DNA of 64,000 bases from Escherichia coli (GTDB taxonomy: Bacteria; Pseudomonadota; Gammaproteobacteria; Enterobacterales; Enterobacteriaceae): the NCBI RefSeq assembly GCF_044324875.1, contig NZ_CP172185.1; one strand, 5' to 3'. This document shows, piece after piece, positions 2,794 to 39,105 of this stretch. Position 1 is the stretch's first letter, and each line of letters starts with the position of its first letter. A model generated the notes under the pieces. The model saw only the letters and a program-made list of their open reading frames with translations, had not been told where the DNA came from and did not search any database. The translations under genes were made by a program, and so were the position numbers.

Positions 2794-2908
2794 AACCAGT
2801 GTCTGGTTCGCGATGGCGAGGTAGAAAAAGCATCATCTTCCTTTCAGAGTGCTCCGCTTCTCATTATTATCTCACGCAGTATTCTTAAGGAAACGATAAG
2901 GAGGAACC

Positions 2909-3709
2909 ATGAACATTACCCCGTTTCCGACGCTTTCGCCGGCAACCATAGATGCCATAAATGTTATCGGTCAGTGGCTGGCGCAGGATGATTTCTCCGG
3001 TGAGATGCCGTATCAGGCCGATTGCGTGATCCTTGCAGGCAATGCGGTTATGCCAACTATCGATGCGGCATGCAAGATTGCCCGCGATCAGCAAATTCCT
3101 CTACTGATTAGTGGTGGTATCGGTCACTCGACAACTTTTTTGTATAGTGCCATCGCACAGCATCCGCACTACAACACTATCCGCACCACTGGCAGAGCAG
3201 AAGCTACCATCCTGGCGGATATCGCTCATCAGTACTGGCACATTCCGCATGAAAAAATCTGGATTGAAGACCAGTCAACAAACTGCGGTGAAAACGCACG
3301 CTTTAGCATCTCGCTATTGAATCAGGCCGTAGAACGAGTTCATACGGCTATCGTTGTTCAGGACCCCACAATGCAGCGGCGCACGATGGCGACGTTCCGC
3401 CGTATGACTGGGGACAATCCCGATGCACCACGCTGGTTAAGTTATCCCGGATTCGTTCCTCAGCTAGGAAACAACGCAGACAGTGTAATCTTTGTTAATC
3501 CGTTGCAAGGATTATGGCCGGTTGAGCGTTATCTCTCACTACTCACTGGCGAGCTGCCACGTTTACGCGATGATAGCGATGGCTACGGTCCACGCGGGCG
3601 AGATTTTATCGTTCACGTTGATTTTCCGGCAGAAGTCATCCAGGCATGGCAAACGCTGAAACACGATGCGGTGCTCATCGAGGCGATGGAAAGTCGCTCG
3701 TTACGTTAA
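2909..3709 (+). CDS. ydcF: DUF218-family protein YdcF
   Basis: 266-aa ORF recognised as YdcF; RBS aaggagg upstream. Confidence 0.9.
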
Positions 3710-3905
3710 AAATTGCCCGTTTGTTAACCATTTGTTTGCAAACGGGCATGACTCCTGACGTTTATTTCTGCCTTTTATTCCTTTTACACTTGTTTTTATG
3801 AAGCCCTTCACAGAATTGTCCTTTCACGATGCCGTCTCTATGATGATTGATGTTAATTAACAATGCATTTACCAATAACAAACATATAAATCACAGGAGT
3901 CGCCC

Positions 3906-5345
3906 ATGTCAGTACCCGTTCAACATCCTATGTATATCGATGGACAGTTTGTTACCTGGCGTGGAGACGCATGGATTGATGTGGTAAACCCTGCTACAGA
4001 GGCGGTCATTTCCCGCATTCCCGATGGTCAGGCCGAGGATGCCCGTAAGGCAATCGATGCAGCAGAACGTGCACAACCAGAATGGGAAGCGTTGCCTGCC
4101 ATTGAACGCGCCAGTTGGTTGCGCAAAATCTCCGCCGGGATCCGAGAACGCGCCAGTGAAATCAGTGCGCTGATTGTTGAAGAAGGGGGCAAGATCCAGC
4201 AGCTGGCTGAAGTCGAAGTGGCTTTTACTGCGGACTATATCGATTACATGGCGGAGTGGGCACGGCGTTATGAAGGCGAGATTATTCAAAGCGATCGTCC
4301 AGGAGAAAATATTCTTCTGTTTAAACGTGCGCTTGGCGTGACTACCGGCATTCTGCCGTGGAACTTCCCGTTCTTCCTCATTGCCCGCAAAATGGCTCCC
4401 GCTCTTTTGACCGGTAATACCATCGTCATTAAACCCAGTGAATTTACGCCAAACAATGCGATTGCTTTTGCCAAAATTGTCGATGAAATAGGCCTTCCAC
4501 GCGGTGTGTTTAACCTTGTGCTAGGGCGTGGTGAAACCGTTGGGCAAGAACTGGCGGGTAACCCAAAGGTCGCAATGGTCAGTATGACAGGCAGCGTCTC
4601 TGCAGGTGAAAAGATCATGGCGACTGCAGCAAAAAATATCACAAAAGTGTGTCTGGAATTGGGTGGTAAAGCACCAGCTATCGTAATGGACGATGCCGAT
4701 CTTGAACTGGCAGTCAAAGCCATCGTTGATTCACGCGTCATTAATAGTGGGCAAGTGTGTAACTGTGCAGAACGTGTTTATGTACAGAAAGGCATTTATG
4801 ATCAGTTCGTCAATCGGCTGGGTGAAGCGATGCAGGCGGTGCAATTTGGTAACCCCGCTGAACGCAACGACATTGCGATGGGGCCGTTGATTAACGCCTC
4901 GGCGCTGGAAAGGGTCGAGCAAAAAGTGGCGCGCGCAGTAGAAGAGGGGGCGAGAGTGGCGTTGGGGGGCAAGGCAGTAGAGGGGAAAGGATATTATTAT
5001 CCGCCGACATTGCTGCTGGATGTTCGCCAGGAAATGTCGATTATGCACGAGGAAACCTTTGGCCCGGTGCTGCCAGTGGTCGCATTTGACACGCTGGAAG
5101 AGGCTATCGCAATGGCTAATGACAGTGATTACGGCCTGACCTCATCAATCTATACCCAAAATTTGAACGTCGCGATGAAAGCCATTAAAGGGCTGAAGTT
5201 TGGTGAAACTTACATTAACCGTGAAAACTTCGAAGCTATGCAAGGCTTCCACGCCGGATGGCGTAAATCCGGTATTGGCGGCGCAGATGGTAAACATGGC
5301 TTGCATGAATACCTGCAGACCCAGGTGGTTTATTTACAGTCGTAA
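3906..5345 (+). CDS. aldA: lactaldehyde dehydrogenase
   Basis: 479-aa ORF recognised as AldA (aldehyde dehydrogenase family). Confidence 0.95.
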   Translation: MSVPVQHPMYIDGQFVTWRGDAWIDVVNPATEAVISRIPDGQAEDARKAIDAAERAQPEWEALPAIERASWLRKISAGIRERASEISALIVEEGGKIQQLAEVEVAFTADYIDYMAEWARRYEGEIIQSDRPGENILLFKRALGVTTGILPWNFPFFLIARKMAPALLTGNTIVIKPSEFTPNNAIAFAKIVDEIGLPRGVFNLVLGRGETVGQELAGNPKVAMVSMTGSVSAGEKIMATAAKNITKVCLELGGKAPAIVMDDADLELAVKAIVDSRVINSGQVCNCAERVYVQKGIYDQFVNRLGEAMQAVQFGNPAERNDIAMGPLINASALERVEQKVARAVEEGARVALGGKAVEGKGYYYPPTLLLDVRQEMSIMHEETFGPVLPVVAFDTLEEAIAMANDSDYGLTSSIYTQNLNVAMKAIKGLKFGETYINRENFEAMQGFHAGWRKSGIGGADGKHGLHEYLQTQVVYLQS

Positions 5346-5355
5346 TGAGTGAAAG

Positions 5356-5379
5356 AGGCGGAGGTTTTTCCCTCCGCCT
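5356..5379. terminator. bidirectional stem-loop terminator between convergent aldA and gapC
   Basis: perfect hairpin aggcggagg-tttttc-cctccgcct. Confidence 0.6.
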
Positions 5380-5386
5380 TTGCGCG

Positions 5387-6388
5387 TCAGAGTTTAGCGA
5401 ATTTTTCGAGGGTGCGAATAAGCTGCGTGACGAAGCCATATTCGTTATCGTACCAGGCGACCGTTTTCACCAGTTGTAAATCGCCCACGGCGGTAATTTC
5501 CGTTTGCGTGGCATCAAACACCGACCCGAAATGGCTGCCAATGATATCAGAAGAGACTATTTCTTCATCGGTATAACCAAATGACTCGTTATTGTTTGTC
5601 GCCTTTTTAAGCGCGTTGTTCACCTCTTCGGCAGTCACTTTTTTTCCAAGAATAGACACCAGTTCAGTCACCGAACCTGTTTTCACGGGTACGCGTTGCG
5701 CATGACCTTTCAGTTTGCCGCTCAGTTCCGGGATCACCAGACCAATGGCTTTTGCCGCACCTGTAGTGTGGGGAATGATATTTTCTGCCGCTGCACGTGA
5801 AGCGCGTAGATCTTTACCTCGCGGACCATCCACCAGTGACTGAGTGCCGGTATAGGCATGAATGGTCGTCATCGTGCCGACTTCTATTCCGAAACTGTCG
5901 TGCAAGGCTTTGGCCATCGGTGCAAGACAGTTAGTGGTGCATGACGCCACGGAAACAATGGTGTCGTTGCCATCCAGTGTGTCGTCATTGACGTTATAAA
6001 CGATGGTTTTCATTTCACCGGCAGGGGCGGAAATCAACACTTTCTTCGCACCAGCATCAAGATGCGCCTGCGATTTCTCGGCGGAGGTATAAAAGCCAGT
6101 ACATTCGACAATGATTTCTGCGCCTTTCGCTTTCCATGGAATATTTTTAGCCTCTTTTTCGGCGTAAACCGCGATACTTTTTCCATCAACGATAAGTGAA
6201 TCTTCCGTAAAATCAACGCGCCAGGGGAACGGACCATAGTTTGAATCATGTTTCAGCAGATAGGCGAGAATTTTTGGGGAAGTGAGATCATTAATAGCAA
6301 CAATGTCTATGTTGCTTTTGACTTCAAGTAATCGACGCAACACCAGTCGACCGATACGACCAAAACCGTTAATACCAACTTTACTCAT
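5387..6388 (-). CDS. gapC: glyceraldehyde-3-phosphate dehydrogenase GapC (intact)
   Basis: uninterrupted 333-aa ORF with the GAPDH N-terminal NAD-binding motif [10 protein letters not shown] and active-site region SCTTNCLAP. Confidence 0.9.
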
Positions 6389-15390: not shown

Positions 15391-15930
15391 ATGACTGAAA
15401 CGATAAAAGTAAGCGAATCACTTGAATTACATGCTGTTGCAGAAAATCACGTCACACCTCTTTATCAGTTAATCTGTAAAAATAAAACCTGGTTACAGCA
15501 GTCGCTAAACTGGCCGCAGTTTGTTCAAATTGAAGAGGACACACGAAAAACGGTGCAGGGCAATGTAATGTTGCATCAACGCGGCTATGCCAAAATGTTC
15601 ATGATTTTCAAAGAAGATGAACTTATCGGCGTTATCTCGTTTAATCGTATTGAACCACTGAATAAAACCGCTGAAATCGGCTACTGGCTGGACGAATCTC
15701 ATCAGGGGGAGGGGATCATTTCTCAGGCGCTGCAGGCATTGATTCATCATTATGCTCAGTCTGGTGAACTTAGACGCTTCGTGATCAAATGTCGGGTGGA
15801 CAATGCGCAAAGCAACCAGGTCGCTTTGCGCAATGGTTTTATCCTTGAAGGTTGCCTGAAACAGGCTGAGTTTCTGAATGATGCCTATGATGATGTGAAC
15901 TTATACGCGCGTATTATCGATTCACAATAA
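15391..15930 (+). CDS. rimL: ribosomal protein L7/L12 serine acetyltransferase
   Basis: 179-aa GNAT ORF from [10 protein letters not shown]. Confidence 0.9.
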
Positions 15931-17025: not shown

Positions 17026-18018
17026 ATGCAGAGCGATAAAGTGCTCAATTTGCCGGCAGGCTACTTTGGTATTGTGTTGGGGACGATAGGGATGGGATTT
17101 GCCTGGCGCTATGCCAGCCAGGTTTGGCAGGTCAGCCACTGGTTAGGGGATGGGCTAGTGATTCTGGCGATGATCATCTGGGGATTATTGACTAGCGCAT
17201 TTATTACCCGACTCATACGCTTTCCGCATAGCGTGCTGGCGGAAGTGCGTCATCCAGTGATGAGCAGTTTTGTGAGTTTGTTTCCGGCAACGACGATGCT
17301 GGTGGCGATTGGTTTTGTTCCGTGGTTTCGCCCACTGGCGGTGTGCCTGTTCAGTTTTGGCGTCGTGGTGCAACTGGCTTATGCCGCCTGGCAAACTGCG
17401 GGATTATGGCGCGGATCTCATCCTGAAGAAGCTACCACGCCTGGACTGTATCTGCCGACAGTTGCCAACAACTTTATCAGCGCAATGGCCTGTGGTGCAT
17501 TGGGCTACACCGACGCTGGTCTGGTGTTTTTAGGCGCAGGCGTTTTCTCATGGTTAAGCCTGGAACCGGTGATCTTGCAGCGTCTGCGCAGTTCGGGAGA
17601 ATTACCCACGGCGCTGCGGACATCACTCGGCATTCAGCTCGCTCCTGCGCTGGTGGCCTGTAGTGCCTGGCTGAGCGTCAACGGCGGCGAGGGTGACACG
17701 CTGGCGAAAATGCTTTTCGGTTATGGGCTGCTGCAACTGCTGTTTATGCTACGTCTGATGCCATGGTATCTCTCCCAGCCATTTAATGCTTCATTCTGGA
17801 GTTTCTCGTTCGGCGTATCTGCACTGGCAACCACCGGTTTGCATCTGGGGAGTGGCAGCGATAATGGATTTTTCCATACGCTGGCGGTGCCGCTGTTTAT
17901 CTTTACCAATTTTATAATTGCAATACTGCTCATCCGTACTTTCGCGCTTCTGATGCAGGGGAAATTGTTAATCAGAACCGAGCGCGCCGTTTTAATGAAA
18001 GCTGAGGACAAAGAATGA
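17026..18018 (+). CDS. tehA: tellurite resistance / C4-dicarboxylate transporter family protein TehA
   Basis: 330-aa polytopic membrane ORF from MQSDKVLN. Confidence 0.9.
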
Positions 18019-18618
18019 TCATTCGTGACGAAAACTATTTTACTGATAAGTATGAATTAACCCGCACACACTCTGAAGTACTGGAAGCGGTGAAAGTGGT
18101 TAAACCCGGTAAAACGCTGGATCTGGGCTGTGGCAATGGTCGTAATAGTCTTTACCTGGCAGCCAATGGTTATGAAGTTGACGCATGGGATAAAAATGCC
18201 ATGAGTATCGCCAACGTCGAGCGTATTAAATCCATTGAAAATCTGGATAATTTACACACCCGGGTCGTTGATCTGAATAACCTTACGTTTGATGGGCAAT
18301 ACGATTTTATTCTTTCGACTGTGGTGCTGATGTTCCTTGAGGCTAAAACCATCCCAGGGCTGATTGCCAATATGCAACGTTGCACTAAACCTGGCGGTTA
18401 CAACCTGATTGTGGCGGCGATGGATACCGCTGATTATCCATGTACCGTCGTGTACCGTCGGCTTCCCGTTTGCCTTCAAAGAGGGAGAATTACGTCGATA
18501 TTACGAAGGCTGGGAGATGGTGAAATACAATGAAGACGTCGGCGAGCTGCACCGCACCGACGCCAACGGTAATCGTATTAAACTGCGTTTCGCCACGATG
18601 CTGGCACGTAAAAAATAA
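18015..18618 (+). pseudogene. tehB: tehB (SAM-dependent tellurite methyltransferase) disrupted by a frameshift
   Basis: ORFs 18015-18533 and 18409-18618 join into one continuous methyltransferase if one copy of the tandem 10-bp repeat at 18441-18460 is removed. Confidence 0.85.
18441..18460 (+). repeat. perfect 10-bp tandem duplication tgtaccgtcg x2 inside tehB
   Basis: read directly from the sequence. Confidence 0.9.
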
Positions 18619-18920
18619 CCTGGTAAGAACAAGGCGCGTGAAAATTCCCCACGCTGAGATGGTCTACTGTTCTTCTTTTCGGTAAGCATAATTTTTATCG
18701 AATGGATGTGAAATTAATCACAGTAGTCGAAGTTTTTTAGCAGCTTAACTTACTGAAATTTAACTACTGATGATTGACTTAGCCCCTTTTTCGGCATTGA
18801 CTATGTCGTCTGAAAAGGGGCTGAAAAATTTATTTTCACCAACACTTTTTTTGCCACAACACGAAGCGGCGCTTTTTGCTATAACTTAGAAAGTAATATA
18901 ATCATCTCAGGAAACTATTC

Positions 18921-19589
18921 ATGCGTACCACATCAATTGCGAAAGTTGCAGCTTTATGCGGCTTGTTGGCTCTGTCTGGTTGTGCCTCTAAAATCACCCA
19001 GCCAGATAAATATTCTGGTTTTTTAAACAATTACTCTGATTTAAAAGAAACAACCTCAGCAACAGGTAAACCTGTTTTACGTTGGGTAGACCCGAGTTTT
19101 GATCAAAGCAAATATGACAGCATCGTCTGGAACCCAGTCACTTATTATCCGGTACCGAAACCATCTACCCAGGTAGGGCAGAAAGTTCTGGATAAAATTT
19201 TGAGTTATACCAACACCGAAATGAAAGAAGCGATTGCGCAGCGTAAACCACTGGTTACCACCGCTGGGCCGCGTAGTCTGATTTTCCGTGGGGCCATTAC
19301 CGGTGTTGATACCAGCAAAGAAGGGCTGCAATTCTATGAAGTGGTTCCTGTCGCATTAGTGGTCGCGGGGACGCAAATGGCGACGGGCCACCGTACCATG
19401 GATACTCGCCTGTATTTTGAAGGTGAGCTGATTGATGCAGCTACTAATAAACCGGTTATCAAAGTCGTTCGTCAGGGCGAAGGTAAAGACCTGAATAACG
19501 AAAGTACGCCAATGGCTTTCGAAAATATTAAACAAGTTATTGATGACATGGCGACCGATGCCACCATGTTTGACGTTAACAAAAAGTAA
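18921..19589 (+). CDS. ydcL: lipoprotein YdcL
   Basis: 222-aa ORF with lipobox LSGC. Confidence 0.9.
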   Translation: MRTTSIAKVAALCGLLALSGCASKITQPDKYSGFLNNYSDLKETTSATGKPVLRWVDPSFDQSKYDSIVWNPVTYYPVPKPSTQVGQKVLDKILSYTNTEMKEAIAQRKPLVTTAGPRSLIFRGAITGVDTSKEGLQFYEVVPVALVVAGTQMATGHRTMDTRLYFEGELIDAATNKPVIKVVRQGEGKDLNNESTPMAFENIKQVIDDMATDATMFDVNKK

Positions 19590-19622
19590 TTCCAGCCGCG
19601 CCATCGTAAGATGCGCTTTTTA

Positions 19623-20795: not shown

Positions 20796-20886
20796 AGTCA
20801 CCTCGTGCGTTATAGCGTACAGGTACCGTAGCATTTGTCCGTTATAACGCACAAGTGATAAACTTCCGTTTTGCCGGAGGAGTCGC

Positions 20887-23548: not shown

Positions 23549-23779
23549 TCAACGTTGTCCCGCTTCTGGTTTGCGCGATTTTTGCCAGTAAAAATGCTCG
23601 CGCAAACCTTCCGCCGACTCTTCCGCCACAGCACGCAATTCATCGCTGTCCGCTTCATGACGCAGTTGATGATCCACATTCTTTACCCACATAAATTCAT
23701 GTCCTTTGTGCCCTGCCATGAGTTGTCCTGAGAACAGCGCACACGTTAATAAGACAACCGATAACGCCTTCGTAAACAT
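23549..23779 (-). CDS. yncJ: DUF2554 secreted protein YncJ
   Basis: 76-aa ORF with signal peptide. Confidence 0.85.
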   Translation of the reverse strand: MFTKALSVVLLTCALFSGQLMAGHKGHEFMWVKNVDHQLRHEADSDELRAVAEESAEGLREHFYWQKSRKPEAGQR

Positions 23780-32736: not shown

Positions 32737-33137
32737 TTATCTGTTCTGCATGATAAATGGGCAAGATAACCAGTGCGGGGTTTGCAATTTCAATGGGACA
32801 GCGTCATCAAGGAGATTGCAATCATCCTGCCATGCATATACTTTTCGCCATCTTTTTATATTTACTTTATTCCCTGAAAGTATAAAGCATTTATAGACTC
32901 CAGCGCGTCTAAAGTATTGATGATAGAAAAATGTGAAAACAAGGTTCCCTTTGAATCAGTAAGCTGTCTGTATAGACGACAGGGGGGGGATGTTTTCTAC
33001 TTATTTCAATGTAGATGTCAGCAAAAAGAAGTAAATATTAAGGATAATGTTGTAAGCCTGGAGAGTATGAGATGATCTTGCGTACTGTCAGAGCACTGAT
33101 TTCTCTGACAGTACGTGCTGCGTGCAAAATCACTACA

Positions 33138-37002: not shown

Positions 37003-39105
37003 TTACTCAAATCGCCACGCAATATTCATGCCGACACCATAATTTCGCCCGGGTGCAGGTTCGTAATATCGCCCGTTTGACTCATTGACAATGACAGAAC
37101 CAACGTATTCTTTATCGAATAAATTATCGACACGACCAAATAAATCCACAGTTAAATTGTGGTAATTGTATTTATACCCGGTGAATAAGCCGACGAGAGT
37201 ATAAGACGGCGCTTTGGCCGTATTTTCATCATCTGCCATAATATCGCCCATGTAACGCGCTTCCGTACCTGCATACCAGCCATCTTCCGGTACATAACCT
37301 ATCGACGCAAAGCCCATATTACGGGCGATCCCTGGCATCCGGTTACCGTTACAATCCTGTTCATTGCACACATTGCTGCGATAGGTCGCATCGAGCCAGG
37401 TCCAGGACGCTTTTACACGAAAATCTCCCGCGAAACGTTGATCCCATGCCAGTTCAGCACCTTGACGACGGGTCTTTCCGGCATTTTTGTAAGTCGTACG
37501 CCCACCGCTACTGCTATCGACAACAATTTCATCATCGGTGTCGGTCTGGAACAATGCGAGACTAAGCAGCCCATCACCAATACGCGTTTTACTGCCGATT
37601 TCAATGGTATCGTTGGTGGATGGTTTTAAACCAAAGTTCATACCGCTTTGCCCATCAGCGCGATAAGAGAGCTCATTAATCGTCGGCGTTTCAAAACCAC
37701 GCCCGGCTGCCAGATAGATATTCCAGGCATCGGTCATTGCATATTTTAACGAACCGGCAGGTAGCCATATGTGATAACTGGCATCACCGCTGTCATCACC
37801 GTTACCCGGAGTAACGTAATGGTCGTTGGAATCAAACCACACGGAGCTGTAGCGCACGCCAGCATCCAGCGACAGTTTTTCGCTCAGCTGCCACTGCGTC
37901 TGTAAATAGGGATCGACGTTCCACATCAGATTGCGTTCGTCGCGGCGCAACTCACCTTTTTGCCCGTATTCCGGCATGCCGCTATTCAGGCGGAAGTTAT
38001 TGTAGCCCTTGCGGTTTTCACTCATGTTTTCGTAGTTCAGGCCGGTAGTGAACGTGAGCGGAACGCCCAGTTCACCACGGTGTGTCCAGCGGCTGTCTAT
38101 CCCCTGGTAATGGCGTTGCAGAGTAATCACGCCGCCCGCATGTGACGGATTAAGTTGGGGAGCCATCGGGATTGACTGGTACTGGGTCGTTTCTCGCTCC
38201 CCGGCATACATCATCACACTCATCTCATCCCGCGAACTCAGGCTACGCTCATAGCGCAGCCCAGCCTGAGTTTGCTTGATGGTTTTTCGCGTGTAGTACT
38301 GTTCAGCGCGTGGCGCTTGTTGCGGATTCGCCTTCCATTCTGCTTCGGTTAGCCCACCTGGGTCATCTGCTTTGATATCCACACTATTGAAAATCAGGCT
38401 TAATTTGCTGGCGTCATCAATGCGTACGCCCAGTTTGGCATTGGCTAAATTTTTCTGTGCGCCACTATGATCACGATAGCCGTGGGTCGTAAAGCGCGTG
38501 GTTGAGACGGTGTAATCGACATCGCCAGGCTGTGTGCCGTCGCCCGTTGCGCCCGTTGCTTTCAGCCCATAGCGCCAGCTGCCAAAACTGCCGTAGTAAC
38601 TACTGGCTTCAATGGTTGGTGGCTGTTGTCCGGTCTGGGTGATGACATTCATTACACCGCCAGACGCGTTGCCATACAGAGCAGAGAAGGGGCCGCGCAG
38701 CACTTCCACATTTTGTACACTGCTTAAATCGATGTTGGATGTTTGCCCTTGTCCGTCGGGCATGGTGGCGGGAATACCGTCCACATACAGGCGAATACCG
38801 CGAATTCCGTAAGTGGAGCGGGAGCCAAATCCGCGAATCGACAGCTGTAAATCTTGCGCATAGTTCTGCCGGTTTTGTACCTGCAAACCAGGCACGCTGG
38901 TCAGTGATTCGGACAAGTTAATGCGCGGTGTTGCCAGGCGCATCTCCTCGCCATCCACCACGCTTACTGCTGCTGGGGTATCCAGTTCTGAAACCACCTG
39001 CGGTGCGGCACTGACAATCATAGTCTGTTCATCAGCGGCAAAAACAACGGGGGAAAGGACAAGCAGTGCGGGCAAAACGGTCTGTCGGACGGAAAAAATC
39101 TTCAT
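37003..39105 (-). CDS. yncD: TonB-dependent outer membrane receptor YncD
   Basis: 700-aa ORF with signal peptide, plug and beta-barrel, C-terminal aromatic residue. Confidence 0.9.
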   Translation of the reverse strand: MKIFSVRQTVLPALLVLSPVVFAADEQTMIVSAAPQVVSELDTPAAVSVVDGEEMRLATPRINLSESLTSVPGLQVQNRQNYAQDLQLSIRGFGSRSTYGIRGIRLYVDGIPATMPDGQGQTSNIDLSSVQNVEVLRGPFSALYGNASGGVMNVITQTGQQPPTIEASSYYGSFGSWRYGLKATGATGDGTQPGDVDYTVSTTRFTTHGYRDHSGAQKNLANAKLGVRIDDASKLSLIFNSVDIKADDPGGLTEAEWKANPQQAPRAEQYYTRKTIKQTQAGLRYERSLSSRDEMSVMMYAGERETTQYQSIPMAPQLNPSHAGGVITLQRHYQGIDSRWTHRGELGVPLTFTTGLNYENMSENRKGYNNFRLNSGMPEYGQKGELRRDERNLMWNVDPYLQTQWQLSEKLSLDAGVRYSSVWFDSNDHYVTPGNGDDSGDASYHIWLPAGSLKYAMTDAWNIYLAAGRGFETPTINELSYRADGQSGMNFGLKPSTNDTIEIGSKTRIGDGLLSLALFQTDTDDEIVVDSSSGGRTTYKNAGKTRRQGAELAWDQRFAGDFRVKASWTWLDATYRSNVCNEQDCNGNRMPGIARNMGFASIGYVPEDGWYAGTEARYMGDIMADDENTAKAPSYTLVGLFTGYKYNYHNLTVDLFGRVDNLFDKEYVGSVIVNESNGRYYEPAPGRNYGVGMNIAWRFE

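Follow-up and report, generated by a model that had tools for sequence, protein, structure and literature searches.

A conserved Escherichia stem-loop between tehB and ydcL as the probable 3' end of tehAB transcripts

The inverted repeat in the spacer between tehB and ydcL of Escherichia coli is a real, single-copy RNA stem-loop conserved in Escherichia, and in K-12 a published + strand RNA 3' end lies directly behind it. On balance we favor the interpretation that this is the hairpin at which tehAB transcripts end, with release of RNA polymerase by Rho or diffusely farther downstream and exonuclease trimming back to the stem, and that it separates tehAB from the ydcL promoter. The accurate wording is "transcript-end hairpin," working probably by a Rho-assisted or otherwise non-canonical mechanism. 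The 3' end itself is already known: a published table lists it, though with an automatic label that misleads. The value of the finding is chiefly for annotation. It provides the tehAB operon with a probable 3' end, about 205-210 nt after the tehB stop, where RefSeq annotates none, and it corrects the label "premature terminus in the ydcL 5'UTR," which was given automatically and by distance alone. The hairpin is an ordinary feature and opens no new biological question; what stays curious is that its loop and flank are invariant and that a CRP site lies close by.

The stem-loop and its conservation

The window is a stretch of 64,000 nucleotides (64 kb) of the E. coli chromosome, which carries the genes ydcK (-), tehA, tehB and ydcL (+), ydcO (-), and sutR (+). 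The features of the locus, all on the + strand, are as follows.

18015..18618, +, tehB, upstream of the hairpin, where its transcript most likely ends
18755..18780, +, 5' flank GAAATTTAACTACTGATGATTGACTT, conserved among Escherichia and holding one invariant ATTGACT
18781..18822, +, stem-loop; outer stem 18781-18791 with 18812-18822
18792-18797 with 18803-18808, +, inner stem, CGGCAU/AUGUCG, 6 pairs
18798-18802 (5 nt), +, apical loop, and 18809-18811 (3 nt), bulge, both from the RNA fold
18823..18832, +, RNA 3'-end zone, transferred from K-12 by sequence identity
18823..18837, +, A/U-rich tail GAAAAAUUUAUUUUC, with no U-tract adjoining the stem
18848..18885, +, ydcL core promoter region: box TTTTTGCCACAAC at 18848-18860 and TTTTTGCTATAAC at 18873-18885
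18921..19589, +, ydcL (DUF3313 lipoprotein), the downstream gene

The arms AGCCCCTTTT (18781-18790) and AAAAGGGGCT (18813-18822) match each other at every position (100% complementarity) across a gap of 22 nt. The sequence-only reading had described this repeat at these coordinates as a 10-bp stem around 22 nt, followed on the 3' side by an A/T-rich tract, and it was right on each count, the tract being GAAAAATTTATTTTC. The 22-nt "loop" is not open in the + strand RNA; it holds the additional pair U18791-G18812 and the inner stem, so the hairpin totals about 17 bp, and a U18780-G18823 pair is able to lengthen it. The RNA fold prediction that the same reading had proposed as a check gives a stable + strand stem-loop of -22.1 kcal/mol (z = -5.3; 0 of 200 shuffles fold as well), with estimates ranging from -22 to -25 kcal/mol at z of about -5, and the - strand of the hairpin reaches only -15.9 kcal/mol. 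The stable G+C-rich stem-loop that is expected of an intrinsic terminator is therefore present at 18781-18822. A perfect 10-bp inverted repeat is by itself weak evidence: seven with loops of 3-30 nt occur in the 64-kb window, against 1.6 +/- 1.0 in Markov-1 simulated windows. The six others lie at 3714-3748, 15804-15832, 20805-20852, 23568-23608, 33081-33115, and 38235-38272.

The tehB-ydcL spacer (302 bp, 18619-18920) was found in 5412 of 5426 complete E. coli genomes, at a median of one place per genome in these 5412, by a search that detects near-identical copies only; no annotated feature lies on the spacer or the hairpin in E. coli genomes. The hairpin is identical in K-12 MG1655 (NC_000913.3, 1502317-1502358). 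Its sequence is limited to Escherichia, namely E. coli, three cryptic or related lineages, E. albertii, and Escherichia sp. MOD1; the exact pattern given by the sequence-only reading matches only the E. coli loci L001 and L002, with variants only in the Escherichia loci L005-L009, and no similar hairpin sequence is found in non-Escherichia ydcL loci. The conservation across Enterobacteriaceae which that reading had asked about thus holds within Escherichia, where the core is kept in six lineages, and fails outside the genus. The conserved core is GCCCCUUUU(U)/(G)AAAAGGGGC. The outermost pair A18781-U18822 is present in E. coli proper only, and the inner stem varies among Escherichia lineages. 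A C-to-U change in L008 gives a G-U pair, on the + strand only, and in L005 a U-A pair has become C-G with a register shift, giving a 13-bp stem of -26 kcal/mol; the changes seen in the aligned Escherichia hairpins are compatible with pairing. Covariation was not significant across the six Escherichia lineages under two structures (88-91% of cells paired, no better than shuffles). Judged from these alignments the structure is conserved, with no support from covariation, and the stem is upheld mostly by plain sequence conservation.

Conservation extends beyond the stem. The block 18755-18920 is much better conserved than 18619-18750, and in Escherichia neither the apical loop CATTGACTAT nor the 27-nt stretch leading into the hairpin varies. 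ATTGACT occurs twice at a spacing of 23 bp, immediately before the hairpin (18773-18779) and at its apex (18796-18802), and both copies are invariant in the six lineages while the stems vary. An invariant loop and 5' flank are not accounted for by the transcript-end hairpin reading; they go beyond the needs of a mere exonuclease block and count against it. In its favor, the hairpin core is kept in L005 (Escherichia sp. MOD1-EC7003, 2827-3000) even though the 127 bp that separate the stop codon of tehB from the flank of the hairpin have been lost, the CRP site described below included; the spacer there is 174 bp long instead of about 300 bp, and the retained hairpin stands about 40 nt after tehB.

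A few further observations concern the spacer. In L003 (E. coli Jnd12, around 1660-1700) the hairpin contains a 36-bp insertion in which parts of the 5' arm and of the loop are duplicated (repeats of CCCCTTTTTCGGCA...), which may reflect slippage at the palindrome or an assembly artefact. In L004 (E. coli E66, 3056-6055) the spacer is broken after 55 bp by IS1 copies, other DNA with hokD replaces ydcL, and the hairpin and ydcL are missing from this position. A small ORF at 18770-18889 (39 aa) was rejected, because L007 and L009 lack its ATG and L009 also has a frameshift from a 1-nt deletion. Flanking CTGAAA(AA)TTTA repeats were considered as a trace of a MITE or a target-site duplication and discarded, there being no terminal inverted repeats by eye. 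Rfam 15 has no family for the hairpin (best scores of 14-20 bits against thresholds of 40-100); the models involved, eukaryotic C/D-box snoRNA and miRNA models, are sub-threshold chance matches, the flank carrying UGAUGA and CUGA.

The mapped RNA 3' end and its surroundings

Bar, Argaman, Eldar, and Margalit (Nat Commun 2023, PMC10687069) report a + strand 3' terminus of MG1655 at this hairpin in two of their tables, with the following entries.

Supplementary Data 3, LB RNAtag-seq, +, peak 1502359-1502368, dominant 1502361, adjusted p 1.5e-14, 1.0e-18, and 4.5e-28
Supplementary Data 2, earlier data, +, peak 1502359-1502367, dominant 1502365, adjusted p 4.4e-13, 3.4e-11, and 5.9e-13

As listed there, the terminus is significant in three of three libraries of both RNAtag-seq datasets, and the sequence and fold printed for it are exactly this hairpin, at -25.4 kcal/mol (PMC10687069). 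The stem ends at 1502358 in K-12, so the 3' ends fall 1-10 nt past it, and the dominant positions 1502361 and 1502365 correspond to 18825 and 18829 in the window (+3 and +7). RNA-seq 3'-end mapping was the first check that the sequence-only reading had named, and a missing transcript end together with missing conservation was what it had said would count against it; the entries in these tables and the Escherichia comparison show both to be present.

The published class of this terminus, as given in the tables, is "premature in 5'UTR of ydcL" (PMC10687069). The "distant primary" ends of that study are restricted to 200 nt after a stop codon (PMC10687069), and the 3' end at the hairpin lies 92-96 nt before the ydcL ATG and 206-210 nt after the tehB stop. 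The "ydcL 5'UTR" label was assigned by a distance rule and therefore says nothing about the origin of the transcript. Among the entries listed in Supplementary Data 2 there is no other + strand terminus between ydcH (1498909) and the hairpin, and "tehB" does not occur among the entries listed in either table (PMC10687069). The Term-seq entries listed by Adams et al. (2021) include no 3' end at the hairpin and none for tehB or ydcL, and no tehB or ydcL entry is among those listed for TERMITe 2025 and SMRT-Cappable-seq. With respect to those listed entries, the Term-seq and long-read absence is a weak negative because tehAB is poorly expressed. Literature searches on tehB with CRP, on tehB with Rho-dependent termination, and on tehB-ydcL found nothing relevant.

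The ydcL promoter lies on the other side of the hairpin. The segment TTTTTGCTATAAC holds an extended -10, TGC-TATAAC (motif 18877-18885), with C at -13 and TG, which is sigma-S-like and agrees with the sigma-S holoenzyme SELEX peak found in the tehB>ydcL spacer (PMC5493296). A TGYTAY -10-like motif is present 42-49 nt upstream of the ydcL ATG in 81 of 81 Enterobacteriaceae loci and reads TGCTATAAC in 46 of these 81, and a TTTTGYCACAA-like box precedes it by about 28 bp in 41 loci. The hairpin is 52-55 nt upstream of this conserved -10 motif. Both the motif and the box are downstream of the hairpin, so a leader transcribed from this promoter does not include it. The suggestion of the sequence-only reading that the repeat may be a protein-binding site in the ydcL leader is not supported by this arrangement, nor by the absence of the hairpin outside Escherichia. 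By eye, nothing convincing was found around the hairpin for a marbox or for sigma-32, sigma-E, or sigma-28. Downstream of the gene, the ydcL terminator hairpin (19598-19616) has one G fewer than in K-12 (GATGCGC vs GATGGCGC), which takes it from -14.8 to -7.7 kcal/mol. IS609 (insQ, yncK), which lies between ydcL and ydcO in K-12 (L001, 3662-5409), is absent from the window (19590-19622) and from Ecol_316.

On the upstream side, tehB is frameshifted in the window by a 10-bp tandem duplication (tgtaccgtcg x2) at 18441-18460; it measures 604 bp against 594 bp in K-12 and Ecol_316, its reading frame is split into 172 aa and 69 aa, and it is probably a pseudogene in this strain. The spacer holds a perfect CRP consensus core, TGTGAAATTAATCACA (TGTGA-N6-TCACA), at 18707-18722, which corresponds to K-12 1502243-1502258. 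From there it is 59 bp to the hairpin and about 177 bp to the predicted ydcL start, both downstream. It is the sole such match in the 64-kb window (0.03 expected), and the core is conserved in four other Escherichia lineages while its flanks vary. Overlapping it on the - strand is a promoter-like site, TTCACA-16-TATGCT, followed by a terminator-like hairpin GCGTGGGGAATTTTCACGC, the two together spanning 18712-18636; the pair could make a tiny antisense transcript at the 3' end of tehB, or could be chance. Directly after tehB, at 18626-18682, AAGAACA...TGTTCTT and CTTTTCGG surround GCGTG..CACGC, and the AACAG/CTGTT pairing with a T run after tehB recurs in L006 and L009. A complex terminator at 18626-18682 was considered and rejected, since its fold is no better than that of shuffles (z = -0.5) and no 3' end is listed for it among the entries of the published tables (PMC10687069).

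A YdcL scan with one genome per species supplied 80 Enterobacteriaceae loci. Many of the sampled genera have a hairpin whose end is about 50-60 nt from the conserved -10 motif, on its upstream side, regardless of the preceding gene. In Enterobacter, Leclercia, Silvania, and Raoultella that gene encodes an ABC-transporter binding protein, and a T run comes after the hairpin. The tehB-linked Trabulsiella and Yokenella also have T-run hairpins, although the positional survey had picked a different, coding-region hairpin for them. Escherichia, Citrobacter, and Salmonella have tehB-linked stem-loops without a T run, and in Kluyvera the T run is at best weak. In sequence the hairpins of Citrobacter and Salmonella are unrelated to that of E. 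coli, and their folds compare as follows.

L021 (Citrobacter), + strand -21.8, - strand -15.0 kcal/mol
L017 (Salmonella), + strand -11.2, - strand -1.3 kcal/mol
L010 (Salmonella), + strand -14.6, - strand -3.8 kcal/mol
L018 (C. amalonaticus), + strand -15.7, - strand -15.0 kcal/mol, little asymmetry

Most of them fold much better on the + strand because of G-U pairs. That the place is kept while the sequence is replaced is the behavior of transcript-end hairpins and not of operators. The locus shows compactly how terminators are exchanged at a single syntenic site ahead of the conserved ydcL promoter, and easy turnover between T-run and U-less stem-loops was predicted by Dar and Sorek.

Routes to the 3' end and other readings

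According to the interpretation that we favor, the inverted repeat would act as + strand RNA. Transcripts started at the tehAB promoter would run about 160 nt beyond the tehB stop and gain the stable stem-loop at 18781-18822, and the steady-state tehAB 3' ends would be those 1-10 nt past the stem. Since its stem lacks a following U-tract, the hairpin probably does not suffice by itself as an intrinsic terminator. RNA polymerase would instead be released slightly farther downstream, by Rho, by inefficient release at the A5U3AU4 tract, or by both, after which 3'-to-5' exonucleases (PNPase and RNase II) would trim the RNA to the hairpin. The hairpin would block them and stabilize the message, as in the class described by Dar and Sorek (2018), and at its distance of 52-55 nt from the ydcL -10 the element would insulate an independently regulated ydcL promoter from tehAB transcription. 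Rho-assisted or diffuse termination with trimming is favored because of the missing U-tract and because the C/G ratio rises from 0.88 upstream of the hairpin to 1.67 in 18823-18920 (up to 1.89 in 78-nt windows), a signature described in PMC6061677, although this region is also the promoter and the bias is mild.

The main rival is that the hairpin alone releases RNA polymerase 7-9 nt downstream over the weak all-A/U tract GAAAAAUUU, free of Rho, as a non-canonical intrinsic terminator; we give it about one third of the weight of the favored reading. The hairpin is very stable, the 9 nt past the stem are all A/U but for one G, and mixed or transitional cases were noted by Dar and Sorek (PMC6061677). 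The dominant end of one dataset (1502365, as listed in the table) lies at +7, the distance expected for intrinsic release, which would fit direct hairpin-driven release and so tells against trimming; the dominant end listed for the other dataset is at +3. The canonical U-tract of about 7-8 nt directly 3' of the stem is lacking here, since five A's come after the stem before any U. The T-tract weight is 0.18-0.29, as against 4.0 for the K-12 ydcL terminator and 5.4 for the Leclercia terminator at the equivalent site, a simple consensus terminator scan does not call the hairpin, and a d'Aubenton-Carafa-type score is about -62, of which only the contrast is meaningful. An alternative 9-bp stem, UUUUUCGGC/GCUGAAAAA, would adjoin UUUAUUUU, and it was set aside at only -9.5 kcal/mol against -24.1 kcal/mol for the main fold. 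The proposal of the sequence-only reading that the repeat may be a terminator for the tehAB transcript is accordingly supported in part: the mapped + strand 3' end lies 1-10 nt past the stem (PMC10687069), but with no U-tract this is not a canonical intrinsic terminator.

It is rather unlikely that the RNA starts within the spacer, for instance with the help of CRP at 18707-18722, so that the hairpin would be a premature terminator, an attenuator, or a 5'-terminal stabilizer of a long ydcL leader, or would make up most of a small RNA some 50-75 nt long. The perfect and conserved CRP core 59 bp upstream, the invariance in Escherichia of the apical loop and the 27-nt 5' flank with the two ATTGACT copies, and the label "premature in 5'UTR of ydcL" printed in the tables (PMC10687069) would all suit such a start, as would a weak -35/-10 candidate found by eye, TTAACT-18-GATGAT (GATAAT in E. 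albertii), with a start at about 18781. The promoter scan finds no + strand promoter upstream of the hairpin, however, and CRP would sit at about -66.5 from the candidate start, out of phase. Moreover L005 retains the hairpin without the CRP site or the candidate -35, no sRNA predicted from RIL-seq is tabulated for the tehB-ydcL spacer, be it as intergenic, 3'UTR, or 5'UTR, nothing is found in Rfam, and other genera have no room for such a promoter.

Related to this is a doubtful, slightly less probable proposal, that the hairpin with its loop CAUUGACUAU and the flank CUGAUGAUUGACUU, which holds the second AUUGACU, forms an Escherichia-specific small RNA or a regulatory element of a 3' UTR or leader. 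If so, it would come from a CRP-dependent start in the spacer or be cut from the tehAB 3' UTR, and its single-stranded AUUGACU motifs would pair with targets, bind a protein, or gate read-through into ydcL.

We hold it improbable that the repeat acts as DNA, as a dyad site for a regulator of ydcL centered about 90 bp upstream of the predicted start. Its perfect 10-bp dyad symmetry and its position would suit an upstream activator, but the arms are 32 bp apart from center to center, and we know of no regulator with this half-site. The arms and center are highly conserved within Escherichia, and ydcL is down-regulated in a rob mutant, a Rob dependence that would agree with such a site (PMC7537768). 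The sequence is nevertheless missing at all ydcL loci outside Escherichia, where the promoter and the box upstream of it are still conserved, the change in L008 keeps pairing by a G-U pair that exists only in + strand RNA, the Citrobacter and Salmonella analogues are unrelated in sequence and mostly fold well only as + strand RNA, and the RNA 3' end listed in the published tables maps exactly at the stem (PMC10687069).

A chance palindrome without function is the least credible reading of all: it can appeal to the approximately 1.6 perfect 10-bp inverted repeats expected per 64 kb and to the lack of significant covariation, but the folding z of -5, the core conserved in six Escherichia lineages, the hairpins at the equivalent place in other genera, and the RNA 3' end listed for K-12 contradict it.

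Comparison with known systems

Several known systems resemble the hairpin in part. REP/BIME elements are likewise intergenic palindromes able to block 3' exonucleases; they occur in many dispersed copies, whereas this hairpin is single-copy (median 1 per genome) and has no REP consensus. With the premature terminators and attenuators of 5' UTRs (Adams et al., 2021) it shares a 3' end 92-96 nt upstream of a start codon, that of ydcL; it differs from them in that the conserved ydcL promoter lies downstream of the hairpin and no upstream start is known or predicted. A canonical intrinsic terminator is like it in stability, in standing at an operon end, and in the 3' end 3-7 nt past the stem, and several other genera carry a hairpin with a T run at the equivalent place. 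The difference is the U-tract, which adjoins the stem in the canonical terminator and is missing at the tehB-ydcL hairpin.

The closest match was described by Dar and Sorek (2018; PMC6061677), who found that Rho-dependent E. coli transcripts end directly after stable stem-loops without U tracts, with a mild excess of C over G downstream and with ends produced by PNPase and RNase II trimming to the stem (PMC6061677). Like these, the tehB-ydcL hairpin is stable and contains GC pairs, an RNA 3' end, precise according to the literature, falls a few nucleotides past it, and it has no U-rich tract after it and no A-tract upstream. C exceeds G mildly in the downstream DNA, a region that is also a promoter. 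Its stem is longer than is typical of them (about 17 bp with a bulge), and its loop and 5' flank are unusually conserved. We place it with the U-less 3' stem-loops, a class already described, and not with the canonical terminators.
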